A stretch of DNA of 64,000 bases, from the NCBI RefSeq assembly GCF_003991155.1, contig NZ_CP031293.1. The stretch is one strand, 5' to 3'. Below are positions 2,283 through 37,162 of the stretch, one piece after another; position 1 is the first letter of the stretch; each line of letters starts with the position of its first letter. The position numbers were made by a program, and so were the translations under genes. The notes beneath the pieces were generated by a model. It did not search any database, had not been told where the DNA came from, and worked only from the letters and a program-made list of their open reading frames with translations. Source of the stretch: Escherichia coli. Lineage in GTDB: Bacteria > Pseudomonadota > Gammaproteobacteria > Enterobacterales > Enterobacteriaceae.

Positions 2283-2489
2283 TTACGGACGGGACTGTGC
2301 AATACGCGCCTGCAGCCAGGCTTCCACTTCGCTTTTCAGCCATCGGGAGCTGCGGCCCATTTTGATGGGCGCAGGAAAGTCACCATCCTTGATGAGTTTG
2401 TAAAACCACTTATCGGTCAGGCCGGTCAGTTGAGTGATAAATGCCATGTCGACCATCTGGTCACCCATCAGTGAAACTGGGGTGATCAT
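2283..2489 (-). CDS. alpA: AlpA-family phage regulatory protein (short helix-turn-helix regulator of P4-like elements)
   Basis: C-terminal 68 aa (MITPVSLMGDQMVDMAFITQLTGLTDKWFYKLIKDGDFPAPIKMGRSSRWLKSEVEAWL...) match the AlpA family pattern; ATG at 2489 follows a GGAGG ribosome-binding site. The longer upstream extension in the ORF track is probably not translated. Confidence 0.75.
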   Translation of the reverse strand: MITPVSLMGDQMVDMAFITQLTGLTDKWFYKLIKDGDFPAPIKMGRSSRWLKSEVEAWLQARIAQSRP

Positions 2490-3192
2490 GAGAATGTTCC
2501 TCCGGATGTTGTTAAACCAGCCGGTGTGGTCATGAAAACAACGCACCACCTTCACCGGCATAACAACCGGGGAGAAACGTAAAAAATAATCGGGAATGTG
2601 ACCGCCAGGAGATAAACGGGGAGGTTACGGTGGCTGAGCCGTACCGGTATGCCGGGTGGTTGTTACGAAACGATGCTTCCGCACGCGCGCGCGATAAAGA
2701 AGGGATGATTTTCGTGAGGAAGAGGGGAAAACTGGCGTTCTGATAATTGCAGAGTTATTTACGGGGCGGTTACGATGGGGCAGACCGTGTCCGGTGGGCA
2801 GGCGACAGGTATCACCGATGGGATAAGACTGTCTGATTGGTATTATAAATATATAAGAGAGAGCAAACACATGAGATCAAATACATGAGTTCATATATGT
2901 GAAATAAACACGGTGAGTGTGATCAGTGGGCATGATGAGAACGCAGTAGCAACAGACTGCGCTATCCCTGATAGCTGGCGTATAACCTGCGTATATAAAA
3001 CGTACCAGCAACGCACGTGAACAGAGTGCATTAAGCATCCGTCGTTGACACCGACCTGGTGAGTGACAGTCTGAGAGACCGGTTAAGTGGTGGTACGGGA
3101 GTAATGAGTTTGGGGAGGGTACCAGAATGTCAGTCTGGTACGGTATGCTGACAGTATCACGTTAATTGCAGCATAAAGTGATGAGAGGCTAA

Positions 3193-3390
3193 TGGAAGTT
3201 AAAACCAGAGCAGTTCCGTCGTTGTTCATCCCGGGAGACACTGGAAAAAGTGATTTCCCACACGCGTTATAAGCTTACTCCAGCGGAGATGGAAGCCTTC
3301 AACTCTGCGGTCGATCACCGACTGGCAGAACTGACAATGAACAAGCTTTACGATCGTGTTCCCGCTTCAGTCTGGAAATATGTCATCTGA
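3193..3390 (+). pseudogene. 5'-truncated gene remnant; open frame with no start codon
   Basis: Frame open immediately after a TAA at about 3190, reading ...KLTPAEMEAFNSAVDHRLAELTMNKLYDRVPASVWKYVI*, with no plausible start and no ribosome-binding site. Consistent with a decayed gene of the integrative-element remnant. Confidence 0.3.
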
Positions 3391-3734
3391 GCGTTCGGTA
3401 ATCACAACTGCATCGCGCCAGGTGTTATCCGCTTTGTGATTCTTATTGGCTCTTCTCAGGTTATTAAAAGCTGAATATGTTCCTGTTGTCGGGAACCAGG
3501 ATAATACCGGGAACGTTAAGCGGTATAGCGACAACAAAGAATTCGAAATCAAAAGGGAATGGTGTACGGAGGTGTAGGCGGTAATGGGCCGATTTTCGGG
3601 CATTACCGACCTCTGCTGAGGTTTTCTCGTATTTATCGGGGAGCTGGTGCGTTACTGTCACTGTCTGGCACAGCAAACGCAGAGGTGGCGGGGCGCTCTG
3701 CTCCGCTGACTCCGGCTAATCTCTCCCCTTTTAC

Positions 3735-3932
3735 CTACTGCAACAGTACAAATACACTGACGCCTGAAACGACAGCCAGAATCAGCACAGGCAGTAACGT
3801 CAGTAGACAAAGCAGACGATCGGTATTTCGGTAATAATCGAAGGGATCTGCTGACACGTAGCCCGGGCAACATTCCGTATTATGAGGGATGGCGTTATCA
3901 CAATCCCTGCACACCGTTTTGCGTATCACCAT
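3735..3932 (-). CDS. Small Cys-rich predicted membrane protein (65 aa), hypothetical
   Basis: ATG at 3932 preceded by a strong GAGGAGG ribosome-binding site. The N-terminus has CxxC...CC cysteines, followed by one hydrophobic segment (LLCLLTLLPVLILAVVSGVSVFVLL). Confidence 0.35.
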   Translation of the reverse strand: MVIRKTVCRDCDNAIPHNTECCPGYVSADPFDYYRNTDRLLCLLTLLPVLILAVVSGVSVFVLLQ

Positions 3933-4135
3933 CACGTCCTCCTCACAATCTTATCCGTAACCGGCTTTTTGCATTAAAAAAACAACGCTGAAAATTCAGC
4001 CGTCAGTCCGGAGACGACAGTCGGGTTATCTCAGAGTGCCTGAGATATTGCCTGGTTGGAGATCACTTCAGGGACTCTGCGCATTTTTTACGGCGTGGTT
4101 AATCCGTATGAACGAAACCATACGGAGATTTAACC

Positions 4136-4705
4136 ATGACCTACAAATACAACCCCTTCTGGCAGCAACGTATTCGTGAGACGGTGCGGCACGCACTGGA
4201 TGTTCATCCCCGTCTGACGGCATTGCGGGTTGATCTGCGTCTCCCGGATGTACCGGCAGCAACGGACGCGGCTGTGATATCCCGCTTCATCAATGCCCTG
4301 AAAGCCCGAATCGACGCTTACCAGAAACGTAAGCATCGGGAAGGTAAACGCGTGCATTCCTCGACCCTGCATTACGCCTGGGCCCGGGAGTTCGGGGAGC
4401 TTAAAGGCAAAAAACACTATCACCTGCTGCTGCTGGTCAACCGGGATACCTGGTGTCGTGCCGGCGATTACCGCGCTCCGGGGTCACTGGCCGGAATGAT
4501 TAAACAGGCGTGGTGCAGTGCCCTGGGAGTGGATGTCGGGTGCCATGCCACGCTGGTGCATTTTCCGGCCTGGCCGGCGGTGTGGCTGGAACGCGATGAT
4601 GATGCTGGTTTACGGGATATGCTGAAGCGTGCTGACTATCTCGCGAAAGAGTACACCAAAGTCAACGGTACCGGTGAGCGCAATTTTGGCTGTAGCCGGA
4701 GTTGA
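4136..4705 (+). CDS. YagK/YfjJ (inovirus Gp2-like) family protein
   Basis: GGAGA ribosome-binding site before ATG 4136. Blocks ISRFI, KRKHREGKRV, KHYHLLLLVNRDTWC, GDYR, SLAG, AWCSALG, LVHF, YLAKE and the C-terminal RNFGCSRS match my recollection of the YfjJ/YagK family found in CP4-type and P4-like islands. Confidence 0.55.
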   Translation: MTYKYNPFWQQRIRETVRHALDVHPRLTALRVDLRLPDVPAATDAAVISRFINALKARIDAYQKRKHREGKRVHSSTLHYAWAREFGELKGKKHYHLLLLVNRDTWCRAGDYRAPGSLAGMIKQAWCSALGVDVGCHATLVHFPAWPAVWLERDDDAGLRDMLKRADYLAKEYTKVNGTGERNFGCSRS

Positions 4706-4964
4706 GCACGACTGGCGCGCCAATATCCGGCAAACCAAAAGTATGGGTTGTTGTCTGGCGGCAACGATGTATCCACTCGCCCACTGACTGTTTTTTACGT
4801 CAGTGTTCCATTGTGTGACAACCACAGTGCTGTAACAGCAACCAGCCTGCTTTACCCAAACTCCAGTCCAGATTTTAACTGAACCGCCATTCACACCCTG
4901 ACCACGCTGCCCGTACCGGGACGGCTGTTGCCTGCGTGTCGTCTGACGGTAAGGAACATATACT

Positions 4965-5366
4965 ATGTACGCAAAATCCTTTCTCGCTCTTGATAGCAAC
5001 GGACGTCTGACGGGCGCCCGTACTGCACAGGCCGCACCTTATGCTCACTACACCTGCCACTTGTGTGGCAGTGCACTCAGATACCATCCGCAATACGACA
5101 CTGAACTTCCCTGGTTTGAACACACTGACGACAGGCTGACAGAGCACGGTCAACAGTGCCCTTATGTCAGGCCGGAGCGCAGAGAAATACAGTTGATTAA
5201 ACGTCTGCAGCAATTCGTACCGGATGCCTTACCCGTGGTGCGTAAAGCCAGCTGGCACTGCAGACAATGTCACCACGATTATTATGGGGAGCAGTACTGC
5301 ACAAACTGCCAGACCGGAGGATTCAGTATTCCCCGGACAACTCAGGAGGAAATATGCGAATTCTGA
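4965..5366 (+). CDS. Zinc-ribbon protein with a CoiA-like N-terminal CxxC...PWFEH motif (paralog 1)
   Basis: AAGGAA ribosome-binding site before ATG 4965. Motifs CHLCGSAL...PWFEH and C-terminal CRQCHH...CTNCQTGG indicate two Cys4-type metal sites. Confidence 0.5.
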   Translation: MYAKSFLALDSNGRLTGARTAQAAPYAHYTCHLCGSALRYHPQYDTELPWFEHTDDRLTEHGQQCPYVRPERREIQLIKRLQQFVPDALPVVRKASWHCRQCHHDYYGEQYCTNCQTGGFSIPRTTQEEICEF

Positions 5367-5788
5367 ACTGTTATATGGCGAATGACAGCAAAGGCCATTT
5401 TGTTACGGCGAAAGAAGCTGCGAAGCACAACCGACAGGACGTTTTGTGCTGTGTGTCCTGTGGATGCCCGTTAACACTTCAGCGGGGCAATGACGGACAA
5501 CCACCGTGGTTTGAACATGACCAGATGACTGTCGCTGAAAAAATCCTGCTGCGATGTACCTGGCTTGACCCGGCAGAGAAAGAGGCCCGTCGTTTGCATC
5601 TGCAGGGCATGACGGTTCCGGATTATACGGTGAAGGTGAGAAAGTGGTTTTGTGTGATGTGTGACGAAGATTATGAGGGGGAAAAGTGCTGCCCACGCTG
5701 CGGTACCGGGGTATACAGCAGGGCGTGGGGGCGGCAGGAGGTGCCGTCGGAAGATGCCAGGGCTGATAATCCGTTACAGAGGCTGTAA
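5354..5788 (+). CDS. Zinc-ribbon protein with a CoiA-like N-terminal CxxC...PWFEH motif (paralog 2)
   Basis: I chose the internal ATG at 5354 because of the AGGAGG ribosome-binding site. Same architecture as the upstream gene (CVSCGCPL...PWFEH ... CVMCDEDY...CPRCGTG); overlaps the upstream gene by 13 bp, suggesting translational coupling. Confidence 0.5.
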   Translation: MRILNCYMANDSKGHFVTAKEAAKHNRQDVLCCVSCGCPLTLQRGNDGQPPWFEHDQMTVAEKILLRCTWLDPAEKEARRLHLQGMTVPDYTVKVRKWFCVMCDEDYEGEKCCPRCGTGVYSRAWGRQEVPSEDARADNPLQRL

Positions 5789-6790
5789 TGGTTGCCTCCG
5801 GAGCAGTTTGCGGTAATGCCGTTCCCGGGAATGGATTGCCAGTGCGGGGACTGTGGAGCTTAATTCCGGTGTTGGTGGCCTTTCCGTTGATTTTGAGCCA
5901 ACAGCCCTCCTGTGACTGACAGGCTGCCTCGTCATTCCATTCGTATCTCCAGTAACAGGGGGTTGTATTGTATTTTAATGTGCCGGTTCAGGCGTGCGTT
6001 TCCCGGCGCGTCTGCACCGGCTTAACCAAATTCAACAGGGATAAAATAGTGTAAATAACCGAAGTATTACTTGAAGAATCGGGGGAAGCATCCGGGGTTT
6101 TATTCAACAGGCATGGGAGGCTCCGGCTCTGACAGACATTGTACTGTGGAATGTTGTTACAGGTTGGGGCGGCAACCGTGCCAGGAGACCATGAGCCGTT
6201 CACGGCATTAAAGGCCACACTTCAGTCGTTTACATTCCCTGTGGTGGCAGGCATCTTCCGTTAAGGCGTCAGAGCGTTACCAACGTTATGTTGTCATGGC
6301 TCACCTTTCATAGTCGATGCTTATCTGGTGACTGAAACTAGCCGCAGATAAAGAGTGTGAAGTTGATACCATGGAGTGGAGTGACGTGCAGGCAGGAGAT
6401 TCGCTCTATGCAGGGTTGTGAGATGAATTCAAACCGGCTGTCAGCGCCAGTAATATTTGAAGATTCGTCCGGTTGTTATCCAGTGTGCATTAAAAACCCA
6501 GACATTATGGACAATACAACGGCTTCCATAACAGGGAGGAGCCTGTTTATTATCCGGGCGTAATGACTAACCTTTGTGGGCTTTTTCCCGTCGTGCTTTT
6601 AACGTTGAAGGCATTTTCTGCCTGCCGATTCAGGACAGCGACAAAAGCCATATCAGACTATTGGTCAATGATGACCAGCGTCTGGAGTAGATGATAAGCC
6701 AAATTGATAAACTGGAATATGTGATGAAAGTGCAACGTAATCAGTCCAATCCGACGATGTTTAACAAGAGTACGGTGTTTTTTCAGTAAG

Positions 6791-7573
6791 TCATTCGTCT
6801 TCTGAATCAGGTGTAATGATCTTTACAGAAGCATTCCGGCAGTGCGTAACATAATCTGCCGGTAACGGACGCTCGCTAATCAGAACATCAAATGCAGAGA
6901 GCGGTGCGAGGCTGGCAGAGGCTACTTCATCGAACAAGGCGTGGCGGGCGAGCAAAATTTTCCTTAGTCCACGGGCCATCGCTTTACGCTTAGTGGCAAG
7001 ATCTTCGGGATTAAACCAGCTGACGCCAAAGTGATCATGTACACCGCTGGCGGAAATAAATATTTTTCGCGGATTGAGAGAGTCTAATGGCGAAGAGTTA
7101 CTGGCATCGTAAAAAGCATCACTTCTGGCACGATACGTACCACCACAAAGTATTGCTGTCACATTAGGTTTTTCATTCAACGCAACAAAGACACGATGTG
7201 AGTAACAGATGCCAGTGAAGGTGATTGCATCCGGGATCATGCTTATAACGAGCGGTATCTCCTGGCCATTATCAAAGAAGATCAGATCATTTTCATTAAC
7301 CATTCCGGCGGCCAGAATTGCAATAGGTAAGTCATCACGATGATTTCTCGGAACGTCCTGGATTACTGGCATGGATGGTGCGGGTTTATGCACCATTACA
7401 ATATAGCCACCCAGTAGGGTCAGTGGCAGAGGTTCATCTTCCTGATGGAGATCGCGACGAATAGTCATTACAGAAACTTCCAGCATTCGTGCCGCGTCTT
7501 TCAAATGGATTCTGTCGGTTTTCTTAAGTATTTCAATCAAACGTCGGATACGCTCTTTTTGCTTCGTTTCCAT
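6791..7573 (-). CDS. deoQ: DeoR-family transcriptional repressor of the deoxyribose operon
   Basis: N-terminal helix-turn-helix (ERIRRLIEILKK...LKDAARMLEVSVMTIRRDL) plus DeoR-type sugar-binding domain, divergent from a deoK-deoP-deoX operon. ATG at 7573 has a GGAGAG ribosome-binding site; the ORF-track start at 7576 is a TTG. Confidence 0.8.
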   Translation of the reverse strand: METKQKERIRRLIEILKKTDRIHLKDAARMLEVSVMTIRRDLHQEDEPLPLTLLGGYIVMVHKPAPSMPVIQDVPRNHRDDLPIAILAAGMVNENDLIFFDNGQEIPLVISMIPDAITFTGICYSHRVFVALNEKPNVTAILCGGTYRARSDAFYDASNSSPLDSLNPRKIFISASGVHDHFGVSWFNPEDLATKRKAMARGLRKILLARHALFDEVASASLAPLSAFDVLISERPLPADYVTHCRNASVKIITPDSEDE

Positions 7574-7588
7574 CAACTCTCTCCGTAA

Positions 7589-16145: not shown

Positions 16146-16781
16146 ATGCTCTTCAGTATGCATATACGAATTGACTATCTGGCGGATAAAAACTGCTTTA
16201 CAGAACTGAATGAATCTCCACGCCTTCGCCGGCAGTGGCAGGATGTTCTGGAGGAGTGCCGGCAGACAGAGGCCGGGCCAGAAGAACGGCTGCGTATTGC
16301 TCTGCTGAATGTGGATTACGTCACCAGTTTTGAACTGCCTTTTCGCTTGTTGCTTACTCGTACACCACAACTGATTGCCGCGCTGCGTGAAGAATGGGAC
16401 ATCAGCCAGAAAAATGTGGTGTTCAACGATAAACGCTTTGGCTGCGTGTACAACCTGAAGGCCAGCCTTTCGGGTGGGCCGGATACATTCCGGTATCATC
16501 TGTCTCACCGTATTCGGCGGGTGGTTGCGAATGAAAACACATCATCGCCATACCAACTGATTGCCCGGGAAGTGAAAGCGCCCCGTCAACGGCTGAAGTA
16601 TGCGCTGGAGACAGGATTGCAGGTGAGCGCACTGGACGGCCTGTTCTGGTTCGGCAGCCAGCGCATTGCGGCAGATATCCTGAGGCTGAGAAAGTACGGG
16701 ATGCGGATTGCGACGGCTTCTGTGGACGTGTATGACAACATAACCGGAACAACTCGTCATATCCCTGTATATTACTCCTGA
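16146..16781 (+). CDS. Hypothetical protein upstream of cdiB, possible C-terminal DNA-binding region
   Basis: The ORF-track start at 16122 is a TTG; the first ATG is at 16146, with weak ribosome-binding-site support. I recognise no family; a possible helix-turn-helix-like stretch is at the C-terminus (GSQRIAADILRLRKYGMRIAT). Confidence 0.4.
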   Translation: MLFSMHIRIDYLADKNCFTELNESPRLRRQWQDVLEECRQTEAGPEERLRIALLNVDYVTSFELPFRLLLTRTPQLIAALREEWDISQKNVVFNDKRFGCVYNLKASLSGGPDTFRYHLSHRIRRVVANENTSSPYQLIAREVKAPRQRLKYALETGLQVSALDGLFWFGSQRIAADILRLRKYGMRIATASVDVYDNITGTTRHIPVYYS

Positions 16782-17002
16782 CGCAAAATAGTCTGTGGGG
16801 GCCGGAGCATGACCGGTAACCGGAACAGGGTTTTGCCCTCGTCACAGCCAAAAATACGTCCTTTATCACATTTCTTCGATTTTTCCTGATATTTTACCGG
16901 GTTACTGTTCAAAAATGCTTCTCTTCTGATGTAAATTTCTTTACTGACACTTTTTGACATGAATTTACACTGGCATCACACAGGCCAGAATACGGGGAGA
17001 AC

Positions 17003-18775
17003 ATGCAGCACCGGCAGAAAAACATTCTGACGAAAACGTCCCTTTTATCCCGTGCGTTGTCTGTCCCCTGTTGTGATATGTTCCGGCGCGGCTCTCCGTG
17101 GATATGCTATCTCTCCCTCTCCGTTTTTTCTGGTTGTTTCATCCCCGCATTTTCGTCTCCGGCAGCCATGCTGTCTCCGGGTGACCGCAGTGCAATTCAG
17201 CAGCAACAGCAGCAGTTGCTGGATGAAAACCAGCGTCAGCGTGATGCGCTGGAGCGCAGTGCGCCGCTGACCATCACGCCGTCTCCGGAAACGTCTGCCG
17301 GTACTGAAGGTCCCTGCTTTACGGTGTCAAGCATTGTTGTCAGTGGGGCCACCCGACTGACGTCTGCAGAAACCGACAGACTGGTGGCACCGTGGGTGAA
17401 TCAGTGTCTGAATATCACGGGGCTGACCGCGGTCACGGATGCCGTGACGGACGGCTATATACGCCGGGGATATATCACCAGCCGGGCCTTTCTGACAGAG
17501 CAGGACCTTTCAGGGGGCGTACTGCACATAACGGTCATGGAAGGCAGGCTGCAGCAAATCCGGGCGGAAGGCGCTGACCTTCCTGCCCGCACCCTGAAGA
17601 TGGTTTTCCCGGGAATGGAGGGGAAGGTTCTGAACCTGCGGGATATTGAGCAGGGGATGGAGCAGATTAATCGTCTGCGTACGGAGCCGGTACAGATTGA
17701 AATATCGCCCGGTGACCGTGAGGGATGGTCGGTGGTGACACTGACGGCATTGCCGGAATGGCCTGTCACAGGGAGCGTGGGCATCGACAACAGCGGGCAG
17801 AAGAATACCGGTACGGGGCAGTTAAATGGTGTCCTTTCCTTTAATAATCCTCTGGGGCTGGCTGACAACTGGTTTGTCAGCGGGGGACGGAGCAGTGACT
17901 TTTCGGTGTCACATGATGCGAGGAATTTTGCCGCCGGTGTCAGTCTGCCGTATGGCTATACCCTGGTGGATTACACGTATTCATGGAGTGACTACCTCAG
18001 CACCATTGATAACCGGGGCTGGCGGTGGCGTTCCACGGGAGACCTGCAGACTCACCGGCTGGGACTGTCGCATGTCCTGTTCCGTAACGGGGACATGAAG
18101 ACAGCACTGACCGGAGGTCTGCAGCACCGCATTATTCACAATTATCTGGATGATGTTCTGCTTCAGGGCAGCAGCCGTAAACTCACTTCATTTTCTGTCG
18201 GGCTGAATCACACACACAAGTTTCTGGGTGGTGTCGGAACACTGAATCCGGTATTCACACGGGGGATGCCCTGGTTCGGCGCAGAAAGCGACCACGGGAA
18301 AAGGGGAGACCTGCCCGTAAATCAGTTCCGGAAATGGTCGGTGAGTGCCAGTTTTCAGCGCCCCGTCACGGACAGGGTGTGGTGGCTGACCAGCGCTTAT
18401 GCCCAGTGGTCACCGGACCGTCTTCATGGTGTGGAACAACTGAGCCTCGGGGGTGAGAGTTCAGTGCGTGGCTTTAAGGAGCAGTATATCTCCGGTAATA
18501 ACGGCGGTTATCTGCGGAATGAGCTGTCCTGGTCTCTGTTCTCCCTGCCATATGTGGGGACAGTCCGTGCAGTGACTGCACTGGACGGCGGCTGGCTGCA
18601 CTCTGACAGAGATGACCCGTACTCGTCCGGCACGCTGTGGGGTGCTGCTGCCGGGCTCAGCACCACCAGTGGTCATGTTTCCGGTTCGTTCACTGCCGGA
18701 CTGCCTCTGGTTTACCCGGACTGGCTTGCCCCTGACCATCTCACGGTTTACTGGCGCGTTGCCGTCGCGTTTTAA
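17003..18775 (+). CDS. cdiB: Two-partner secretion outer-membrane transporter (TpsB; ShlB/FhaC/HecB family)
   Basis: 590 aa with POTRA-containing TpsB character, GGGGAG ribosome-binding site, immediately upstream of a 3288-aa TpsA-type exoprotein with a VENN motif. Confidence 0.9.
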   Translation: MQHRQKNILTKTSLLSRALSVPCCDMFRRGSPWICYLSLSVFSGCFIPAFSSPAAMLSPGDRSAIQQQQQQLLDENQRQRDALERSAPLTITPSPETSAGTEGPCFTVSSIVVSGATRLTSAETDRLVAPWVNQCLNITGLTAVTDAVTDGYIRRGYITSRAFLTEQDLSGGVLHITVMEGRLQQIRAEGADLPARTLKMVFPGMEGKVLNLRDIEQGMEQINRLRTEPVQIEISPGDREGWSVVTLTALPEWPVTGSVGIDNSGQKNTGTGQLNGVLSFNNPLGLADNWFVSGGRSSDFSVSHDARNFAAGVSLPYGYTLVDYTYSWSDYLSTIDNRGWRWRSTGDLQTHRLGLSHVLFRNGDMKTALTGGLQHRIIHNYLDDVLLQGSSRKLTSFSVGLNHTHKFLGGVGTLNPVFTRGMPWFGAESDHGKRGDLPVNQFRKWSVSASFQRPVTDRVWWLTSAYAQWSPDRLHGVEQLSLGGESSVRGFKEQYISGNNGGYLRNELSWSLFSLPYVGTVRAVTALDGGWLHSDRDDPYSSGTLWGAAAGLSTTSGHVSGSFTAGLPLVYPDWLAPDHLTVYWRVAVAF

Positions 18776-18787
18776 GGGATTATTACC

Positions 18788-21700
18788 ATGCATCAGCCTC
18801 CCGTTCGCTTCACTTACCGCCTGCTGAGTTACCTTATCAGTACGATTATCGCCGGGCAGCCGTTGTTACCGGCTGTGGGGGCCGTCATCACCCCACAAAA
18901 CGGGGCTGGAATGGATAAAGCGGCAAATGGTGTGCCGGTCGTGAACATTGCCACGCCGAACGGGGCCGGGATTTCGCATAACCGGTTTACGGATTACAAC
19001 GTCGGGAAGGAAGGGCTGATTCTCAATAATGCCACCGGTAAGCTTAATCCGACGCAGCTTGGTGGACTGATACAGAATAACCCGAACCTGAAAGCGGGCG
19101 GGGAAGCGAAGGGTATCATCAACGAAGTGACCGGCGGTAAGCGCTCACTGCTGCAGGGCTATACGGAAGTGGCCGGCAAAGCGGCGAATGTGATGGTTGC
19201 CAACCCGTATGGTATCACCTGTGACGGCTGTGGTTTTATCAACACGCCGCACGCGACGCTCACCACAGGCAAACCTGTGATGAATGCCGACGGCAGCCTG
19301 CAGGCGCTGGAGGTGACTGAAGGCAGTATCACCATCAATGGCGCGGGCCTGGACGGCACCCGGAGCGATGCCGTATCCATTATTGCCCGTGCAACGGAAG
19401 TGAATGCCGCGCTTCATGCGAAGGATTTAACTGTCACTGCAGGCGCTAACCGGATAACTGCAGATGGTCGCGTCAGTGCCCTGAAGGGCGAAGGTGATGT
19501 GCCGAAAGTTGCCGTTGATACCGGCGCGCTCGGTGGAATGTACGCCAGGCGTATTCATCTGACCTCCACTGAAAGTGGTGTCGGGGTTAATCTGGGTAAC
19601 CTTTATGCCCGCGAGGGCGATATCACCCTGGATGCCAGCGGCAGACTGACTGTCAACAACAGTCTCGCCACGGGGGCCGTCACTGCAAAAGGTCAGGGCG
19701 TCACCTTAACCGGCGACCATAAAGCGGGAGGTAACCTGAGCGTCAGCAGCCGGAGCGATATCGTTCTCAGCAATGGAACGCTTAACAGCGACAAGGACCT
19801 CAGCCTGACCGCCGGCGGCAGAATCACTCAACAGAATGAAAAACTGACTGCCGGCCGGGATGTAACGCTTGCCGCGAAAAACATCACACAGGATACCGCC
19901 AGCCAGATTAACGCGGCCCGCGATATCGTGACTGTCGCCAGTGACACGCTGACAACACAGGGACAGATAACCGCCGGGCAGAATCTCACGGCCAGCGCCA
20001 CCACGCTGACACAGGACGGAATATTGCTGGCGAAAGGTCATGCGGGACTCGATGCCGGCACGCTGAATAACAGTGGTGCTGTTCAGGGGGCTTCCCTGAC
20101 GCTCGGCAGTACAACGCTCAGCAACAGTGGCTCCCTGCTCAGTGGCGGTCCCCTGACCGTGAATACCCGCGACTTTACCCAGAGCGGCCGCACTGGCGCG
20201 AAGGGCAAAGTGGATATCACGGCCAGTGGGAAACTGACCAGTACAGGTTCGCTGGTGAGCGATGATGTACTGGTGCTGAAGGCGCAGGATGTGACACAGA
20301 ACGGTGTGCTGTCCGGCGGCAAAGGGCTGACGGTCAGTGCGCAGGCGCTGAGCTCCGGTAAAAAATCGGTCACCCACAGCGATGCTGCGATGACGCTGAA
20401 TGTGACAACAGTGGCGCTGGACGGGGAAAACAGTGCCGGTGACACCCTCCGGGTTCAGGCAGACAAACTGAGTACCGCAGCGGGCGCACAGCTTCAGAGC
20501 GGTAAAAATCTCAGCATCAACGCCAGAGATGCACGTCTTGCAGGTACGCAGGCAGCACAACAGACCATGGCGGTGAACGCCAGTGAAAAGCTCACCCACA
20601 GCGGGAAAAGCAGCGCCCCGTCGCTCAGCCTCAGTGCGCCGGAACTGACCAGCAGCGGTGTGCTTGTTGGTTCCGCCCTGAATACACAGTCACAGACCCT
20701 GACCAACAGTGGTCTGTTGCAGGGGGAGGCCTCACTCACCGTTAACACACAGAGGCTTGATAATCAGCAGAACGGCACGCTGTACAGTGCTGCAGACCTG
20801 ACGCTGGATATACCGGACATCCGCAACAGCGGGCTTATCACCGGTGATAATGGTTTAACGTTAAACACTGCCTCCCTCAGCAATCCGGGAAAAATCATCG
20901 CTGACACGCTGAACGTCAGGGCGACCACGCTGGATGGTGATGGTCTGTTGCAGGGCGCCGGTGCACTGGCGCTTGCAGGCGACACCCTCTCACAGGGCCG
21001 TAACGGACGCTGGCTGACGGCGGGCGACCTCTCCCTCCGGGGTAAAACACTGCATACCGCAGGGACCACGCAGGGACAGAATCTCACCGTGCAGGCGGAC
21101 AGATGGGCGAACAGTGGTTCCGTGCTGGCAACCGGTAACCTTACTGCTTCGGCAACCGGTCAGTTGACCAGTACCGGCGATATCATGAGCCAGGGTGACA
21201 CCACGCTGAAAGCAGCCACCATGGACAACCGGGGCAGTCTGCTTTCGGCCGGCACGCTCTCCCTTGATGGAAACTCACTGGATAACAGCGGCACTGTCCA
21301 GGGTAACCATGTCACGATTCGCCAGAACAGTGTCACCAACAGTGGCACGCTCACCGGGATAGCCGCGCTGACGCTTGCCGCCCGTATGGCATCCCCTCAA
21401 CCTGCGCTGATGAATAACGGAGGTTCATTGCTGACCAGCGGCGATCTGACAATCACCGCAGGCAGTATTACCAGTTCCGGACACTGGCAGGGCAAACGGG
21501 TGCTGATCACCGCAGACAGTCTGGCAAACAGCGGGGCGATCCAGGCGGCTGACAGCCTGACTGCACGTCTGACGGGTGAGCTCGTCAGCACAGCGGGCAG
21601 CAAAGTCACCTCGAACGGTGAAATGGCGCTCAGTGCACTGAATTTAAGCAACAGCGGACAATGGATTGCAAAAAATCTGACCCTGAAGGCGAACTCACTG

Positions 21701-24700
21701 ACCAGTGCGGGTGACATCACCGGTGTGGATACTCTCACGCTCACGGTGAATCAGACGCTGAACAATCAGGCGAACGGAAAACTGCTCAGTGCAGGTGTGC
21801 TGACGCTGAAGGCAGACAGTGTCACAAACGACGGGCAATTACAGGGAAATGCCACCACCATCACGGCAGGACAACTCACAAACGGCGGGCATCTGCAGGG
21901 CGAAACGCTGACGCTGGCCGCCTCCGGTGGCGTGAACAACCGTTCCGGTGGTGTTCTGATGAGCCGGAATGCACTGAATGTCAGTACTGCGACCCTGAGT
22001 AACCAGGGCACGATACAGGGTGGTGGCGGGGTTTCCCTGAACGCCACAGACCGTCTGCAGAACGACGGCAAAATCCTTTCCGGCAGTAACCTCACGCTGA
22101 CGGCGCAGTTGCTGGCGAACACCGGCAGCGGACTGGTACAGGCTGCCACCCTGCTGCTGGATGTGGTGAATACTGTCAACGGCGGACGCGTACTTGCCAC
22201 CGGCAGTGCCGACGTTAAAGGAACCACGCTGAATAATACCGGTACGCTTCAGGGGGCGGACCTGCTGGTGAATTACCACACATTCAGCAACAGCGGTACC
22301 CTGCTGGGAACCTCCGGGCTTGGCGTCAAGGGCAGTTCACTGCTGCAAAATGGTACAGGGCGGCTGTACAGTGCAGGCAACCTGCTGCTTGACGCTCAGG
22401 ACTTCAGTGGTCAGGGGCAGGTGGTGGCCACCGGTGATGTCACACTGAAACTGATTGCTGCCCTCACGAATCATGGTACCCTGGCCGCAGGGAAAACCCT
22501 TTCCGTCACGTCGCAAAATGCCATCACCAACGGCGGTGTGATGCAGGGTGATGCCATGGTGCTCGGTGCCGGAGAGGCATTCACCAACAATGGAATGCTG
22601 ACTGCCGGTAAAGGCAACAGTGTTTTCAGCGCACAGCGTCTTTTCCTTAACGCACCGGGTTCACTTCAGGCCGGTGGCGATGTGAGTCTGAACAGCCGGA
22701 GTGATATCACCATCAGTGGTTTTACCGGCACGGCAGGCCGTCTGACAATGAATGTGGCCGGTACCCTGCTGAACAGTGCGCTGATTTATGCGGGGAATAA
22801 CCTGAAGCTGTTTACAGACCGTCTGCATAACCAGCATGGTGATATCCTGGCCGGCAACAGTCTGTGGGTACAGAAGGATGCTTCCGGCGGTGCAAACACA
22901 GAGATTATCAATACCTCCGGGAATATTGAGACGCATCAGGGCGATATTGTTGTAAGGACCGGGCATCTTCTGAACCAGCGGGAGGGATTTTCTGCCACAA
23001 CAACAACCCGGACTAACCCCTCATCCATTCAGGGAATGGGAAATGCTCTGGTTGATATTCCCCTTTCCCTTCTTCCTGACGGCAGCTATGGCTATTTCAC
23101 CCGTGAAGTTGAAAATCAGCACGGTACGCCCTGCAACGGGCACGGGGCATGCAATATCACAATGGATACGCTTTATTATTACGCTCCGTTTGCTGACAGT
23201 GCCACACAGCGCTTTCTCAGCAGCCAGAACATCACAACAGTAACCGGTGCTGATAATCCGGCAGGCCGCATTGCGTCAGGGCGTAATCTTTCTGCTGAGG
23301 CTGAACGACTGGAAAACCGGGCGTCATTTATCCTGGCGAATGGGGATATCGCACTTTCGGGCAGAGAGTTAAGCAATCAGAGCTGGCAGACGGGGACAGA
23401 GAATGAATATCTGGTATACCGCTACGACCCGAAAACGTTTTACGGTAGCTATGCCACAGGCTCTCTGGATAAACTGCCCCTGCTGTCACCGGAATTTGAA
23501 AACAATACCATCAGATTTTCACTGGATGGCCGGGAAAAAGATTACACGCCCGGTAAGACGTATTATTCCGTTATTCAGGCGGGCGGGGATGTTAAGACCC
23601 GTTTTACCAGCAGTATCAATAACGGAACAACCACTGCACATGCAGGTAGTGTCAGTCCGGTGGTCTCTGCACCGGTACTGAATACGTTAAGTCAGCAGAC
23701 CGGCGGAGACAGTCTGACACAGACAGCGCTGCAGCAGTATGAGCCGGTGGTGGTTGGCTCTCCGCAATGGCACGATGAACTGGCAGGTGCCCTGAAAAAT
23801 ATTGCCGGAGGTTCGCCACTGACCGGTCAGACCGGTATCAGTGATGACTGGCCACTGCCTTCCGGCAACAATGGATACCTGGTTCCGTCCACGGACCCGG
23901 ACAGTCCGTATCTGATTACGGTGAACCCGAAACTGGATGGTCTCGGACAGGTGGACAGCCATTTGTTTGCCGGACTGTATGAGCTTCTTGGAGCGAAACC
24001 GGGTCAGGCGCCACGTGAAACGGCTCCGTCGTATACCGATGAAAAACAGTTTCTGGGCTCATCGTATTTTCTTGACCGCCTCGGGCTGAAACCGGAAAAA
24101 GATTATCGTTTCCTGGGGGATGCGGTCTTTGATACCCGGTATGTCAGTAACGCGGTGCTGAGCCGGACGGGTTCACGTTATCTCAACGGACTGGGTTCAG
24201 ACACGGAACAGATGCGGTATCTGATGGATAACGCGGCCAGACAACAGAAAGGACTGGGATTAGAGTTTGGTGTGGCGCTGACAGCTGAACAGATTGCTCA
24301 GCTTGACGGCAGCATACTGTGGTGGGAGTCAGCCACCATCAACGGACAGACAGTCATGGTCCCGAAACTGTATCTGTCGCCGGAAGATATCACCCTGCAT
24401 AACGGCAGCGTTATCAGCGGGAACAACGTGCAACTTGCGGGCGGCAATATCACCAACAGCGGCGGCAGCATCAACGCACAGAACGACCTCTCGCTCGACA
24501 GTTCCGGCTATATCGACAACCTGAATGCGGGGCTGATAAGCGCGGGCGGTAGCCTGGACCTGAGCGCCATCGGGGATATCAGCAATATCAGCTCAGTCAT
24601 CAGCGGTAAAACCGTACAACTGGAAAGCGTGAGTGGCAACATCAGCAATATCACCCGGCGTCAGCAATGGAATGCGGGCAGTGACAGCCAATATGGTGGT

Positions 24701-27700
24701 GTGCATCTCAGCGGTACGGACACCGGTCCGGTTGCGACCATTAAAGGCACTGATTCACTTTCGCTGGATGCAGGGAAAAACATTGATATTACCGGGGCAA
24801 CGGTCTCGTCCGGTGGAGACCTTGGAATGTCTGCGGGTAATGATATCAACATTGCCGCAAACCTGATAAGTGGGAGCAAAAGTCAGTCCGGTTTCTGGCA
24901 CACTGATGACAACAGTTCATCATCCACCACCTCACAGGGCAGCAGCATCAGCGCCGGCGGTAACCTGGCGATGGCTGCAGGCCATAATCTGGATGTCACG
25001 GCATCCTCTGTTTCTGCCGGGCACAGCGCCCTGCTTTCTGCAGGTAACGACCTGAGTCTGAATGCAGTCAGGGAAAGCAAAAACAGTCGCAACGGCAGGT
25101 CAGAAAGTCATGAAAGCCACGCAGCTGTGTCCACGGTGACAGCGGGCGATAACTTCCTCCTTGTTGCCGGTCGTGATATTGCCAGTCAGGCTGCCGGTAT
25201 GGCTGCGGAAAATAACGTGGTCATCCGGGGCGGACGTGATGTGAACCTGGTGGCAGAGTCTGCCGGCGCAGGCGACAGCTATACGTCGAAGAAAAAGAAA
25301 GAGATTAACGAGACAGTCCGTCAGCAGGGAACGGAAATCGCCAGCGGTGGTGACACCACCGTCAACGCAGGACGGGATATCACCGCTGTTGCGTCATCCG
25401 TTACCGCAACCGGCAATATCAGCGTGAATGCCGGTCGTGATGTTGCCCTGACCACGGCGACAGAAAGTGACTATCACTATCTGGAAACGAAGAAAAAAAG
25501 CGGAGGTTTTCTCAGTAAGAAAACCACCCGCACCATCAGTGAGGACAGTGCCACCCGTGAAGCAGGCTCCCTGCTGTCGGGGAACCGCGTGACCGTTAAC
25601 GCCGGTGATAACCTGACGGTAGAGGGTTCGGATGTGGTGGCTGACCGGGATGTGTCACTGGCGGCGGGTAACCATGTTGATGTTCTTGCTGCCACCAGTA
25701 CAGATACGTCCTGGCGCTTTAAGGAAACGAAGAAATCCGGTCTGATGGGTACCGGCGGTATTGGTTTCACCATTGGCAGCAGTAAGACAACGCACGACCG
25801 GCGCGAGGCCGGGACAACGCAGAGTCAGAGTGCCAGCACCATCGGCTCCACTGCCGGTAATGTCAGTATTACCGCGGGCAAACAGGCTCATATCAGCGGT
25901 TCGGATGTGATTGCGAACCGGGATATCAGCATTACCGGTGACAGTGTGGTGGTTGACCCGGGGCATGACCGTCGTACTGTGGACGAAAAATTTGAGCAGA
26001 AGAAAAGCGGGCTGACGGTTGCCCTTTCCGGCACGGTGGGCAGTGCCATCAATAATGCGGTTACCAGTGCACAGGAGACGAAGGAGAGCAGTGACAGCCG
26101 TCTGAAAGCCCTGCAGGCCACAAAGACAGCGCTGTCTGGTGTGCAGGCCGGACAGGCTGCGACAATGGCCTCCGCAACCGGTGACCCGAATGCGATGGGA
26201 GTCAGCCTGTCGCTCACCACCCAGAAATCGAAATCACAACAACATTCTGAAAGTAACACAGTATCCGGCAGTACGCTGAATGCCGGGAATAATCTGTCTG
26301 TTGTCGCAACCGGTAAAAACAGGGGCGATAACCGCGGAGATATTGTGATTGCCGGAAGCCAGCTTAAGGCCGGTGGTAACACAAGCCTGGATGCCGCGAA
26401 TGATATTCTGTTGAGTGGCGCCGCAAACACACAAAAAACAACGGGCAGGAACAGCAGCAGTGGCGGTGGCGTGGGTGTCAGTATCGGTGCCGGTGGTAAC
26501 GGTGCCGGTATCAGCGTCTTTGCCGGCGTTAATGCGGCAAAAGGCAGCGAGAAAGGTAACGGTACTGAGTGGACTGAAACCACAACAGACAGCGGTAAAA
26601 CCGTCACCATCAACAGTGGTCGGGATACGGTACTGAACGGTGCTCAGGTCAACGGCAACAGGATTATCGCCGATGTGGGCCACGACCTGCTGATAAGCAG
26701 CCAGCAGGACACCAGTAAGTACGACAGTAAACAGACCAGCGTGGCTGCCGGCGGCAGTTTTACCTTTGGCTCCATGACCGGCTCAGGTTACATCGCTGCC
26801 TCCCGGGATAAGATGAAGAGCCGCTTTGACTCCGTTGCTGAACAAACCGGAATGTTTGCCGGTGATGGTGGCTTCGACATTACAGTGGGCAGACATACCC
26901 AACTGGATGGTGCGGTGATTGCCTCCACTGCCACACCGGATAAAAACCACCTGGATACCGGAACGCTGGGGTTCAGTGACCTTCACAACGAAGCGGATTA
27001 TAAAGTCAGTCACAGTGGAATCAGTCTGAGCGGTGGTGGCAGCTTCGGGGATAAATTTCAGGGTAACATGCCGGGTGGCATGATATCCGCCGGAGGTCAC
27101 AGCGGACATGCGGAAGGAACGACTCAGGCCGCAGTGGCAGAAGGCACTATCACCATCCGGGACAGGGACAATCAGAAGCAGAATCTGGCGAACCTGAGCC
27201 GTGACCCTGCGCACGCTAATGACAGTATCAGCCCGATATTTGACAAGGAGAAAGAGCAGAGGCGTCTGCAGACAGTGGGGCTTATCAGTGACATAGGCAG
27301 TCAGGTGGCGGATATTGCGCGTACACAGGGAGAACTGAATGCGTTGAAGGCCGCGAAGGAAGCAACCGGCGAAACACTTCCTGCTAATGCAACAGAGAAA
27401 CAACGTCAGGAATATCTTGCGAAACTGCGTGACACGCAGGCTTACAGGAATGAAATGGCGAAGTATGGTACCGGCAGTGAAATTCAGCGGGGTATCCAGG
27501 CCGCGACAGCCGCGCTTCAGGGACTGGCGGGTGGTAATTTAGCGGGTGCTCTGGCCGGAGCTTCTGCACCGGAACTGGCGCATCTGCTGAAATCAACAGA
27601 AAAAGACCCGGCAGTAAACGCCATTGCTCACGCCATTCTGGGCGGTACAGTAGCGGCAATGCAGGGTAATAATGTTGCTGCTGGTGCAGCAGGCGCAGCA

Positions 27701-28654
27701 ACGGGAGAGCTGGCAGCCAGAGCGATTGCCGGAATGCTGTATCCGGGAGTGAAGCAGTCAGACCTCAGTGAAGAGCAGAAGCAGACGATAAGTACGCTGG
27801 CAACTGTGTCAGCAGGGCTGGCCGGCGGTCTAACCGGAAACAGCACCGCATCAGCAGCAGTGGGAGCACAGAGCGGGAAGAATGCTGTTGAGAATAACTA
27901 CCTGAGCGTGTCTGAAAAGACAGAACTTGAGATAGCAAAACAGACGCTTAAAAACAGTAAAGATCCGGCAGAGCGTGAAAAGGCACAGCAGAAATATGAT
28001 GCATTGCTTGAAAAAGATATTGCCAGTGATAAGGAGGTTATTGCTGCCTGTAGTAATGGTAATGCGAGTAGTTCAGCGTGTGCCAGCGCAAGACTGAAAG
28101 TTATTGCGTCGAAAGAAGGGTACGAAGATGGCCCTTATAACTCGAAATACAGCCAGCAATACGCTGATGCGTATGGTCAGATAGTCAATCTCCTCGATAT
28201 CACCAGTGTTGATGCACAGAATCAGCAGCAGGTGAAAAACGCCATGATTAACTATTTCATGGTCACCAAAGGGGTGGATCGTCAGACCGCAGAAAGCTAC
28301 ACCGAAACAACGCAGGGCTTGGAGATCATTGCGGCTTCGGTAACGCCTCTTATAGGGCAAGCTGCATCAAATAAATTAAGCTACCTTGGTATTGGGAAAA
28401 AGATATCCTTTGATGGTGATTTTTATACTGTAGATGGAATGAAATTCAGCAAAAGTTATTATGAGAAATTATGGGAGCAAGGCAGACCTGCGCCATTCGT
28501 GCAAGCAAGAGAAGTGTTGAATAGCAATCCAAAAATTGAGCCGGATCCTAGAGGCGCACCTGGCTACTTAAGATATGAAGGTGCAGGTCTTGAAATGATC
28601 TATAACCCGAAAACGGGACAAGTTGGTCATATTCAACCAGTCAAGGTTAAATAA
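18788..28654 (+). CDS. cdiA: Contact-dependent growth inhibition exoprotein CdiA (3288 aa)
   Basis: N-terminal two-partner-secretion transport domain ([27 protein letters not shown]), long filamentous-haemagglutinin-type repeat tract, glycine-rich pre-toxin region and the VENN motif ([15 protein letters not shown]) about 255 aa from the C-terminus. Confidence 0.9.
27887..28654 (+). other. CdiA-CT toxin region (VENN to stop); enzymatic class unassigned
   Basis: VENN codons at 27887..27898, in frame with cdiA. The final domain (...[33 protein letters not shown]...GHIQPVKVK) matches no toxin I can name and does not end in GYGI. Confidence 0.7.
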
Positions 28655-28667
28655 AAAGAGGAAGTAA

Positions 28668-28988
28668 ATGGATATTTGGCCTGAATTTCAACGAGATCTT
28701 GAGATGTATCGAGATGTTGTTTTATCAATAAAACGTAACCTTCGGTTGTATGAGGAGTGTATTGAATCGTTAGTTCATCAGATCGGAAGCACCAATTTTG
28801 ATAATGCGCAGCCTCTATTTGATGACCTCTTTCGTATGCAATCTGAACTTGCTACTATGTTATACAAATATGAATATAAGCCAGGAAAAAGGATACAAGA
28901 TTTAATATATCATCTGGACAGGGATGATTTTTACTCAAGAAAATATTGGCATAAAAAATTCAGTGATGGATTGGCATGGCCTGAATAA
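28668..28988 (+). CDS. cdiI: Putative CdiI immunity protein cognate to the CdiA-CT
   Basis: 106-aa ORF starting 13 bp after the cdiA stop with an AGAGGAAG ribosome-binding site; visibly more AT-rich than cdiA, as expected for an exchangeable toxin/immunity cassette. The assignment is positional. Confidence 0.7.
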   Translation: MDIWPEFQRDLEMYRDVVLSIKRNLRLYEECIESLVHQIGSTNFDNAQPLFDDLFRMQSELATMLYKYEYKPGKRIQDLIYHLDRDDFYSRKYWHKKFSDGLAWPE

Positions 28989-29081
28989 TAGAAGTAGAAA
29001 TCCCGCCCTCAGTTAGCGCTGAGGAATCCCTAGTAATGGGCGGGTAAAAAAGACAGGCATAGAGTTTTGTGATCTACTGAT

Positions 29082-29642
29082 TTGTGCAACCAATTCAATG
29101 AGATCGCTTCTATGCCTGCTCGACAAGTATGTCAGAATTTTTTCCACGATGCGTTAGCACCGTTTCACAAATACCGACAAAATGCTTTGCTGGATGCCAC
29201 CATCGCTCTCATCAATGGCGCATCACTGACGTTGACCAGCATCGGGCGTTATTTACCCGGCTTGGCTCGGGTCAAAAATAAAATCAAACGCGTTGACCGA
29301 CTGCTCGGTAATGAATCTCTTCACCGCGATATCCCACTGATTTTCAATAATATTATTGCCATGCTGACTAGCCAGCTATCTCTTTGTGTCATCGCCGTTG
29401 ACTGGAGTGGATATTCATCTCAGGAGCATCATGTGCTCCGCGCCAGCCTGCTCTGCGATGGATGCTCGCTTCCCCTGTTAAGCTGGGTAGTCCCGTCAGA
29501 AAAACAGCAGAACTCGCAGATACAAAAAAACTTCCCAGATGCCCTTGCCGAGGCTGTAAACCCTGTGGCCAGAGTCATAATAGTTACCGATGCGGGTGTT
29601 CTTACCCCCTTATTTCCAGACAGGGGCTGTATCTTAAGTTAA
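29082..29642 (+). pseudogene. IS4-family (IS10-like) transposase, N-terminal fragment only
   Basis: RVKNKIKRVDRLLGNESLH ... VIAVDWSG ... VLRASLLCDG ... IIVTDAGV parallels the IS10 transposase N-terminus (KHNIKRIDRLLGN ... IVLVDWSD ... LRASVALHGR ... IVSDAGF). The frame ends after 186 aa where an IS3-family fragment begins. Confidence 0.6.
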
Positions 29643-29760
29643 CATTACCCGCTGACGTCGATATTCTCGCGGAGAGCGATAACCCAACGCACTATGCGGA
29701 TGGTTTTCATTGTAATGCTCGATCGCCACTGCAAGGTTTATATTGCCTGTTCATCGATCA
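29637..29760 (-). mobile_element. IS3-family transposase (OrfB) C-terminal fragment
   Basis: The minus strand encodes ...[35 protein letters not shown], the conserved C-terminal signature of IS3-family integrase-core transposases. Upstream frames are broken by stops. Confidence 0.55.
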
Positions 29761-30219
29761 TCAATCTCGTGAACTGTGAGACGAAACAGCGTACACTGTT
29801 TGAACGTATCTACTTTTCCCAATACTGGGCGAAGGGAGATGTTATTGCGAAGCGCGCTCCAATTAGTCAGTGGGAACCTTATTCGGAAGAGTCACTGCTT
29901 GTCATCATCGTCACCAGCGTCTGTCGTATTAAAGTCGCGATGCTAAAACCTGAACCTCCCAGAGATCCCCATATCCCGCTAATGGGGGATTTTAACTAAA
30001 ACTTAGCGCTATCGCTGCATATTGTAACTATCCCGCATCACGTATGCATAAATTATGACGCCATACGGGGAACAAATACACAGAGGAAGAAAAAGATTAG
30101 ATTGGTTTTAAGGGATTTTTTATCATAAATGGCGCTGCTAAAATTATGAGATTATCGAAGATAAAATTCTTGATCATACATAAAAGGCCTCCTGAATTAA
30201 ATCAAGAGGCGTATAGTTT

Positions 30220-32567: not shown

Positions 32568-32976
32568 ATTTGTTTCCTGTGTTATTCTAATACAGCCCTT
32601 AAAGTAAATATTAGGGAGCCTCAACAATATCCAGCAATAATTATATTGTCTTCAAATACGCCAGTACTATTAATTGTTATCAATACCTAATCAGTACAAT
32701 CTTTTTCTCCATTTCTTCTTAACATATTTCACGCTATGAAAGATAAAACTGATACCCACCTTCAGTTTTGGGTCACCATCAAAAAAAATGTTCGCCAGAT
32801 ATTCCACCACTGGCACAGTTCAACCCTGCTTCAAAAATTGACTTATTCATTGTGCTCATTTTCGTAGTCCGTTCAGGTTGAATAAAACTCCCTTAGTCAA
32901 ATGAGGAAAGACTGAGAGGTTATTACTTTAGCTTACGTTATAGCTGTTTTCCTTTGCAGTATTTCTTTGCTTTTCT

Positions 32977-33000
32977 GTATACCTTTATACCTGTTATACC
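32977..33000. promoter_or_regulatory. NanR-type operator: three GGTATA hexamers (minus strand reads GGTATAACAGGTATAAAGGTATAC)
   Basis: Read directly from the sequence, about 410 bp upstream of the yjhB-like start. The tri-repeat GGTATA arrangement is the known NanR binding architecture. Confidence 0.5.
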
Positions 33001-33775: not shown

Positions 33776-33797
33776 CAGAGCAGTGCGTCAGCGGGCG

Positions 33798-37112: not shown

Positions 37113-37162
37113 CTAGGTGGAAAAGTAACTTAGTCTGCAAGGATCAGGAGTTACAGACGGCA

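Follow-up and report, generated by a model that had tools for sequence, protein, structure and literature searches.

A small gene of Escherichia coli genomic islands encoding a putative tail-anchored zinc-ribbon protein

Small proteins in which an N-terminal zinc ribbon of the form CxxCG...CPxCG is followed by about 10 residues and one transmembrane (TM) helix are known from the Pfam families Zn_Ribbon_1 (PF13240), Zn_ribbon_3 (PF13248) and DZR (PF12773), and from PHROGs 38187, 10292 and 14275. The same layout is found in the family of the gene described here, a 65-codon gene on the minus strand at 3735–3932 of a 64,000-nucleotide stretch of Escherichia coli DNA (contig NZ_CP031293.1, assembly GCF_003991155.1; hereafter the window), which is a B2-type E. 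coli genomic island. Its product is an uncharacterised, narrowly distributed zinc-ribbon and single-TM-helix microprotein that is already in RefSeq. We regard it as a genuine small gene of an E. coli-restricted island family that would encode a tail-anchored zinc ribbon, for which an adaptor function is guessed, and give this reading a probability of about 0.6. The comparison was based on 16 distinct intact alleles, which fall into five classes.

Class A: the window allele
Class B: alleles with CCPSC
Class C: alleles with CCPYC, including those of CFT073 and Nissle
Classes D and E: alleles with a very different tail

Canonical alleles match the three PHROG families, all of unassigned function, over the ribbon and the TM helix, with the class D canonical allele matching phrog_38187 at E 1.5e-5, whereas the window allele has no match in PHROGs. 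Generic zinc-ribbon microproteins (P0114, P0116 and P0119) are also alike in size, with 60–80 residues. However, the present family is set apart by an invariant signature (MVIR, HNT, CCP and YYR.TDR), occurs in E. coli islands only and occupies a fixed slot adjacent to a yfjJ-like gene. The look-alike P0119 was rejected as a relative, being distant and lying in an unrelated Dot/Icm-type integrative and conjugative element.

A further comparison is offered by the island itself. Zn_ribbon_11 (PF11682), carried by the neighbouring DUF7828 proteins of the same module, shares with the small protein the pattern [IV]RK-x2-C-x2-C-D ... C-C-P-x-C-G, and the ribbon of the small protein aligned with that of the second DUF7828 protein (CCPxCG) with an hhalign probability of 47% (E 1.9e-4) and in BLASTP at E 0.004 over 25 residues. 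However, the similarity is confined to this 25-residue Cys-rich motif, and the small protein gives no PF11682 match in hmmscan. The DUF7828 proteins also differ in being soluble, 133–144 residues long and headed by DUF7828, with no TM helix. Kinship of the two ribbons is thus far weakly suggested, a lead and not demonstrated.

Type I toxins (Hok/Gef, Ldr, TisB, Ibs, ShoB, ZorO and DinQ) likewise combine a small open reading frame (ORF), one TM helix, a strong Shine–Dalgarno (SD) sequence, a mobile or accessory element and a hairpin leader. The small protein differs from them in its conserved hydrophilic zinc ribbon within 65 residues, and it has no family match, no antisense RNA family or signal and no significantly structured leader. 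The zinc-binding anti-sigma (ZAS)/zf-HC2 factors RsrA, ChrR and RslA embody a similar idea, in that a cytoplasmic zinc module, often tethered by a single TM helix, holds a cytoplasmic partner. In contrast to these, the small protein has R4-K-T-V-C8-R-D-C11 and neither H-x3-C-x2-C nor an extracytoplasmic sensor domain, and no sigma-factor gene was found either in the 12 kb around the gene or over some 46 kb on its downstream side (window 1–49980). The likeness to ZAS factors is best taken as a functional analogy, not membership.

The coding frame at 3735–3932

The gene and its ribosome-binding site are located as follows.

3735–3932, minus strand: coding sequence (CDS) of the 65-residue microprotein, RefSeq WP_000236763.1, with frame-specific purifying selection across the 16 alleles
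3938–3944, minus strand: SD sequence GAGGAGG, 5 nt from the ATG

The 65-codon frame is a genuine small protein-coding gene and a member of a real family. Pairwise dN/dS (omega) over the whole ORF was ambiguous, at 0.4–0.55 with similar off-frame values, and became informative after the domains were split and changes were counted on a tree. In codons 1–39, pairwise pN/pS was 0.09–0.34 in the annotated frame versus 1.4–2.7 and 0.5–1.6 in the other sense frames, and the variable sites of this half were distributed 9/11/23 over the three codon positions. On a neighbour-joining tree of the 16 alleles scored by Fitch parsimony, these codons had undergone 43.5 synonymous and 46.5 nonsynonymous changes on 25 and 92 sites, respectively, giving an omega of 0.29 (P = 4.6e-9) in the annotated frame, compared to 1.21 and 0.73, neither significant, in the other sense frames. 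The annotated sense frame is, moreover, the only one of the six that is open in all alleles. An antisense-frame signal (omega 0.40) was discarded as an echo of shared third positions, as that frame contains about three stops per allele. The check named in an earlier note on this DNA, conservation of the frame, the SD sequence and the position in homologous islands, thus came out in favour of a real small gene, with synonymous bias in the annotated frame only.

The second half of the gene evolves differently. In codons 40–64, pN/pS was 0.55–1.9, residue identity was not conserved and DNA identity was 50–53% in classes D and E. Despite the divergence of the tail, the ORF kept a length of 64–66 codons and the tail a hydropathy of 2.45–2.8. 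When one class was mutated at random with the observed number of differences (about 47% nucleotide divergence), openness and hydropathy were matched in 0.015–1% of trials, and the P value for a retained hydrophobic tail was 1.5e-4 to 1e-2. The TM half of the window allele is 91–98% identical to those of classes B and C. A recombination breakpoint between classes was seen at codon 39/40 (window 3816–3818 versus loci L010–L015), the boundary between zinc ribbon and TM helix; these loci are 76–93% identical to the window upstream of the breakpoint, 50–60% identical from codon 40 and then unalignable, and in L010 and L011 hha is also absent downstream. Recombination does not explain the frame-specific substitution bias.

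The frame runs from the ATG at 3932–3930 to the TAG at 3737–3735 and its product is MVIRKTVCRDCDNAIPHNTECCPGYVSADPFDYYRNTDRLLCLLTLLPVLILAVVSGVSVFVLLQ, with Cys at residues 8, 11, 21 and 22 inside the hydrophilic N-terminal 39 residues. The anatomy given in the earlier note (a 65-residue minus-strand ORF, a GAGGAGG ribosome-binding site, a cysteine cluster and one TM helix) is present at this place in every part. An in-frame GTG at 3935, one codon 5' of the ATG, would give the 66-residue version found in the mechanical ORF list. The ATG is likely the start, because GAGGAGG is spaced 5 nt from it and merely 2 nt from the GTG. Arrangements of the form GGAGG-N4–8-ATG occurred 13 times in the window versus 9.8 ± 3.3 times in shuffled sequences; the SD–ATG motif by itself is not beyond chance, and its weight comes from its conservation in the other island classes, as GAGGAGG(A/G) in classes A–E and as GGAGAGGGAG / GGCGAGGGAG in the CFT073/Nissle class. 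In the latter (L005–L007, from CFT073, AR_0162 and Nissle 1917), the start ATG has become ATC at positions ~1556–1558, and the NCBI Prokaryotic Genome Annotation Pipeline (PGAP) still annotates the 65-residue WP_001547002.1; a start at the GTG of codon 2, 8 nt from GGGAG, appears more plausible there.

The gene had been put forward as unannotated and of a kind easily missed by automated annotation, and both statements proved wrong. The RefSeq annotation of NC101 has a CDS at exactly 3735–3932, the "hypothetical protein" WP_000236763.1, and an identical protein is present on at least 1000 public contigs, along with a UniRef entry. The 901 bp around the ORF are 100% identical in many complete E. 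coli chromosomes. PGAP calls the gene in every inspected complete genome with an intact copy and flags broken copies as 'frameshifted' pseudogenes. Older manual island annotation, such as that of the SRL pathogenicity island (orf39 YfjJ-like, orf40 Hha-like), lists no gene between the two. The small gene was formerly missed by annotation and is no longer missed.

Zinc ribbon, membrane tail and the window allele

The protein is encoded in three consecutive parts.

3858–3911, minus strand: degenerate zinc-ribbon motif C-R-D-C-D...C-C-P-G-Y, codons 8–25, with the fourth Cys changed to Tyr
3816–3836, minus strand: basic linker YYRNTDR, codons 33–39, directly 5' of the TM-helix codons
3741–3815, minus strand: C-terminal TM helix, codons 40–64, from hydropathy and an AlphaFold2 (AF2) helix with a predicted local distance difference test score (pLDDT) of 85–93

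The family consensus is MVIRKKKC-RD-CGNAITHNTVC-CP-x-CG (CxxCG...CCPxCG), followed by the linker and the helix. The ribbon spans about 30 residues as C8-x2-C11-G ... C21-C22-P-x-C25-G, and C8, C21, C22, P23, H17-N18-T19 and Y33-Y34-R35 are invariant across the family. From this pattern we infer that the family ribbon binds zinc. AF2 modelled a canonical allele, on a broader alignment, with a mean pLDDT of 78, two short beta-hairpins and a helix at 37–65; in the canonical member the strands lie at 5–7 and 14–16, with bridges at 21 and 28 (pLDDT 70–78). In Foldseek, nearly all top PDB matches listed for the canonical model were C4 zinc ribbons or knuckles at 1–2 Å root mean square deviation, none of them significant, and the top viral fold matches were phage 'zinc-ribbon domain' proteins of 60–70 residues. 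Canonical alleles also matched about 12 Pfam zinc-ribbon models at E 0.009–0.05, all over residues 5–28, and a PDB sequence search returned only spurious Cys-motif matches.

Tail residues 40–65 have a mean Kyte–Doolittle value of 2.58 (2.82 in the best 19-residue window). The stop codon stands one residue after the helix in the window allele, and the helix ends 1–3 residues before the stop in the family. All classes conserve what defines a tail anchor, one hydrophobic helix of at least about 20 residues at the extreme C-terminus. The N-terminal domain of canonical alleles carries a net charge of +5. Because the helix has R35 and R39 directly before it and no charge after it, a positive-inside pattern read from the sequence, and because Cys–Zn sites need a reducing compartment, the protein is predicted to be a tail-anchored inner-membrane protein with an N-in/C-out topology.

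The window allele carries a degenerate form of this ribbon. The changes C25Y, G12D and G26V have removed the fourth ligand and both knuckle glycines, and C8, C11, C22 and Tyr25 (CCPGY) do not make up the C4 form CxxC...CxxC that classes B–E have. The N-terminal cysteine cluster of the earlier note does exist, with Cys at 8, 11, 21 and 22, but it is really three-quarters of a canonical zinc ribbon with Tyr at 25; the loss of a zinc ligand had gone unnoticed, as had the relaxed-selection clade to which the allele belongs. In clade A/B, which includes the window allele, codons 1–39 had 15 synonymous and 33 nonsynonymous changes (omega 0.60, P = 0.07), compared to 28.5 and 13.5, respectively, in the canonical clades (omega 0.13, P = 3.6e-10), and the two sets differed in Fisher's test (P = 0.0014). 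On a shallow alignment, AlphaFold placed a helix at 32–64 (pLDDT about 85) in the window allele and left the N-terminus without a resolved fold (pLDDT about 50). Its only Pfam match was UPF0547, at 12.3 bits versus a cut-off of 29, and searches of Pfam, NCBIfam, PADLOC and PHROGs gave nothing usable for it. The window copy is intact and has a strong SD sequence; selection on its ribbon is relaxed or possibly diversifying. Nearly neutral evolution of the ribbon in this clade, together with the loss of Cys25 and the knuckle glycines, suggests that the zinc site of the window allele may be weakened, though C21 or H17 might substitute for the fourth ligand.

Island context, expression signals and distribution

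The surroundings of the gene contain the following features.

3241–3390, plus strand: short Hha/YmoA-family gene, 49 residues, convergent neighbour (Pfam PF05321, E 2.4e-22, profile positions 12–57 of 57)
3933–4135, minus strand: conserved 203-nt divergent control region or leader common to the small gene and the yfjJ-like gene
3977–4018, minus strand (that of the ORF): terminator-like hairpin or hairpins and T-run, about 35 nt 5' of the SD sequence of the small gene
4136–4705, plus strand: gene of a YagK/YfjJ-family ('inovirus Gp2 family') protein, 189 residues, divergent neighbour (Pfam PF11726, E 4.6e-45)
4965–5366 and 5354–5788, plus strand: two tandem paralogous DUF7828 and Zn_ribbon_11 genes, from domain matches, 3' of the yfjJ-like gene

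The small gene adjoined a yfjJ-like gene in 22 of the 22 homologous loci whose upstream flank was available, a count that leaves aside L026, a 660-bp contig that ends short of this neighbour. Gene order was identical in every island class fetched, with only hha sometimes absent or truncated, and an AlpA-type helix–turn–helix gene lies beyond the short hha-like gene. The island hha copy encodes 49 residues here versus 70 in other island classes and is truncated or frameshifted in several islands. The description of the surroundings as otherwise non-coding, decayed DNA applies to one side of the gene: the 344-nt spacer towards the hha-like gene is variable (20–82% identity), whereas the 203-nt spacer towards the yfjJ-like gene is 81–98% identical between island classes and the yfjJ-like gene beside it is intact.

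No gene stands upstream of the 3977–4018 hairpins on the minus strand, and the CFT073/Nissle class has a different GC stem (CGCCGG...CCGGCG) before the same T-run. The hairpin and T-run are a hint that an attenuator is conserved here or that a short leader RNA ends here. Terminator-like hairpins numbered two in the region scanned versus 1.2 expected, which is within chance, and the fold of the 171-nt leader was no better than those of shuffled sequences (z −1.0), giving no sign of a structured leader. On the plus strand, a very strong hairpin at 4092–4141 (GGUUAAUCCGUAUG ... CAUACGGAGAUUUAACC) encloses the SD sequence of the yfjJ-like gene and abuts or includes its AUG. Its folding energy is −24.4 kcal/mol (z −7.46), and none of 200 shuffled sequences folded as well; the stem is conserved across all island classes and the loop differs by a 5-nt indel. 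This hairpin might lock translation, act as an operator or serve as a Rep-type origin hairpin.

Homologous DNA was found in about 3500 of 5426 complete E. coli genomes, at a median of two places per genome. The window holds no second copy, and CP4-57 (yfjI–yfjJ) and CP4-6 (yagK) of K-12 hold neither a copy nor a named counterpart. Phage and plasmid collections contained essentially none, the only occurrences being mis-binned chromosomes or fragments. When 1.84 billion representative proteins were searched with a profile, only 44 hits were obtained, namely the E. coli family, frameshift variants and zinc-ribbon proteins of a generic kind. A scan with a degenerate pattern, covering 100,044 species with one genome each, returned solely a contaminant contig identical to the window. 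This contig, from a Paenibacillus tengchongensis assembly (L020, NZ_WACP01000054.1), matches the window at 100% identity over 327 nt, a stretch that includes the N-terminal codons of the window allele; it was set aside, since a 683-bp contig at 0.59x coverage is almost certainly E. coli contamination. To judge from these searches, the family is effectively restricted to E. coli.

Elsewhere in the window, an acetolactate synthase small-subunit pseudogene fragment (6563–6789, plus strand) abuts a DeoR-family regulator (6791–7576) that belongs to a deoxyribose-type operon with a ribokinase-like kinase, a FucP-like permease and an aldose epimerase. Mapping to the NC101 annotation placed an aryl-polyene-type cluster, a cdiB/cdiA locus and nanXY at approximately 16243–31264, 31780–43434 and 45000–47347. 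The cluster includes ApeI/ApeP dehydratases, a ketosynthase, an acyl carrier protein, an MMPL protein and a LolA-like protein, and the cdiB/cdiA contact-dependent inhibition locus has an orphan VENN-toxin fragment.

Proposed role and alternative explanations

We propose that the family gene has a set place within the backbone that tRNA-associated genomic islands conserve: divergent from the YagK/YfjJ-family gene, with one or two DUF7828/zinc-ribbon genes after the latter, and usually convergent with the island hha. A cytoplasmic C4 zinc ribbon would be carried, through a short basic linker, on a TM helix as a tail-anchored inner-membrane protein. Tethered to the membrane, the ribbon may bind a cytoplasmic partner, either a protein or a nucleic acid, that belongs to the same island module; the peptide would then not be a pore-forming toxin. 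Candidate partners would be the YfjJ-like Rep-type protein, the DUF7828 ribbons, Hha/H-NS and AlpA. A tethered binding module is favoured because the hydrophilic ribbon is under selection while the sequence of the anchor is free to vary; a pore-forming peptide is expected to constrain the helix sequence itself.

Several points weigh against this proposal. The adaptor role is purely a guess. Cys25 is missing from the window allele, independent losses of a ligand (Cys25 to Phe, Cys11 to Ser) are found in other alleles, and the omega of clade A/B is not distinguishable from neutral. All zinc-ribbon matches of canonical alleles in Pfam are below the curated threshold (11–16 bits versus cut-offs of 23–29), and the best Foldseek E values of 0.69 in the PDB and 0.02 in the viral library are not significant. 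Recombination is evident at the locus and inflates the parsimony counts, which take no account of it. The promoter scan gave no consensus sigma-70 promoter for the small gene, a terminator-like hairpin lies between any upstream promoter and the SD sequence, and the searchable literature holds no expression data for the protein; no mention of it was found by accession or peptide string, including in the supplements of the Sakai ribosome-profiling (RIBOseq) and Enterobacteriaceae small-ORF studies. Furthermore, frameshifts, deletions or truncations affect at least six of the copies sampled, so that the gene is dispensable and often decaying.

The window copy could be a relic allele of a real family, its frame and SD sequence persisting for lack of time and its product no longer zinc-folded or useful. 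The contrast between omega values of 0.60 and 0.13, the changes C25Y, G12D and G26V, the weaker or missing matches to Pfam, NCBIfam and PHROGs compared to canonical alleles, the failure of AF2 to model the N-terminus, the short neighbouring hha and the frameshifted sister copies are all consistent with such a relic. However, nothing is broken in the ORF, its ATG or its perfect GAGGAGG, and at least 1000 contigs carry the identical allele; the TM half remains close to those of classes B and C; and C8, C11, C21, C22 and H17 are kept, of which Cys21 or His17 could act as the fourth ligand. An omega of 0.6 with changes clustered in residues 24–33 could equally mean diversifying selection. We regard a relic as rather unlikely on balance. 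That the frame might be no gene at all, and an open by-product of conservation of the yfjJ–hha intergenic region at the DNA or RNA level (regulatory sites or an untranslated RNA), is very improbable. The adjacent leader is more conserved in nucleotides than the ORF, the SD–ATG motif alone is within chance and no expression evidence was found in the searchable literature, but the synonymous excess is confined to the annotated frame, the 9/11/23 distribution of variable sites is that of codon positions, no Rfam family matches, and ORF length and hydrophobic tail persist at about 50% DNA identity where the downstream DNA is unalignable.

A toxic or membrane-depolarising role, as implied by the earlier note, found little in its favour. 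On this view the peptide would resemble a type I toxin or a superinfection-exclusion protein: inserted in the inner membrane, it would on expression depolarise the membrane or block something there, and so aid island persistence or phage exclusion. It is small, with a single TM helix, a strong SD sequence and a place on a mobile island; the conserved leader with its terminator-like hairpin could hold expression low; the gene is recurrently inactivated across many genomes, as is often seen for costly genes; and the variable segment at residues 24–33 could indicate an arms race. However, neither PADLOC, the toxin families of Pfam and NCBIfam nor the antitoxin RNAs of Rfam gave a match. PADLOC-DB 2.0 returned zero families for either allele, for the yfjJ-like protein and for DUF7828 protein 1, and only a match of 10 bits (E 0.06) for DUF7828 protein 2; Rfam returned nothing at E ≤ 1 over 2400–5000. 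The antisense (plus) strand at 3200–4300 had no promoter-like or terminator-like site, a scan of consensus signals only, which does not prove that such sites are absent. Nor is the leader unusually structured, phage and plasmid records contain essentially no member of the family, and a conserved 39-residue hydrophilic ribbon under purifying selection is not known from toxins of the Hok, Ldr, TisB, Ibs, Sho, Zor and DinQ types. A toxin or exclusion factor is therefore a poor prospect.

Returning to the tethered zinc ribbon, we mention as a long shot that an E. coli-only membrane tether might act with the Rep-like YfjJ protein and the DUF7828/zinc-ribbon proteins to localise or gate island replication, excision or transfer, or to sense or block phage. 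If this were true, the hyper-variable loop (residues 24–33) and the recombination at codon 39/40 would be traces of an arms race against a partner that varies, and the conserved backbone of E. coli pathogenicity islands would contain a new functional module. For genome annotation, the small gene is already captured by PGAP, and the practical gap is function, not detection. NC101, CFT073 and Nissle are among the strains that carry island backbones of this kind, at sites of the pheV/pheU/leuX type. To our knowledge, only Hha and AlpA among the backbone genes have a defined role. If the protein is made, it would be a further conserved component of this poorly understood backbone of E. coli pathogenicity and fitness islands, alongside the AlpA, Hha, YfjJ-like and zinc-ribbon genes, and a membrane-anchored zinc ribbon beside a Rep-like gene may offer a handle on island regulation or maintenance.

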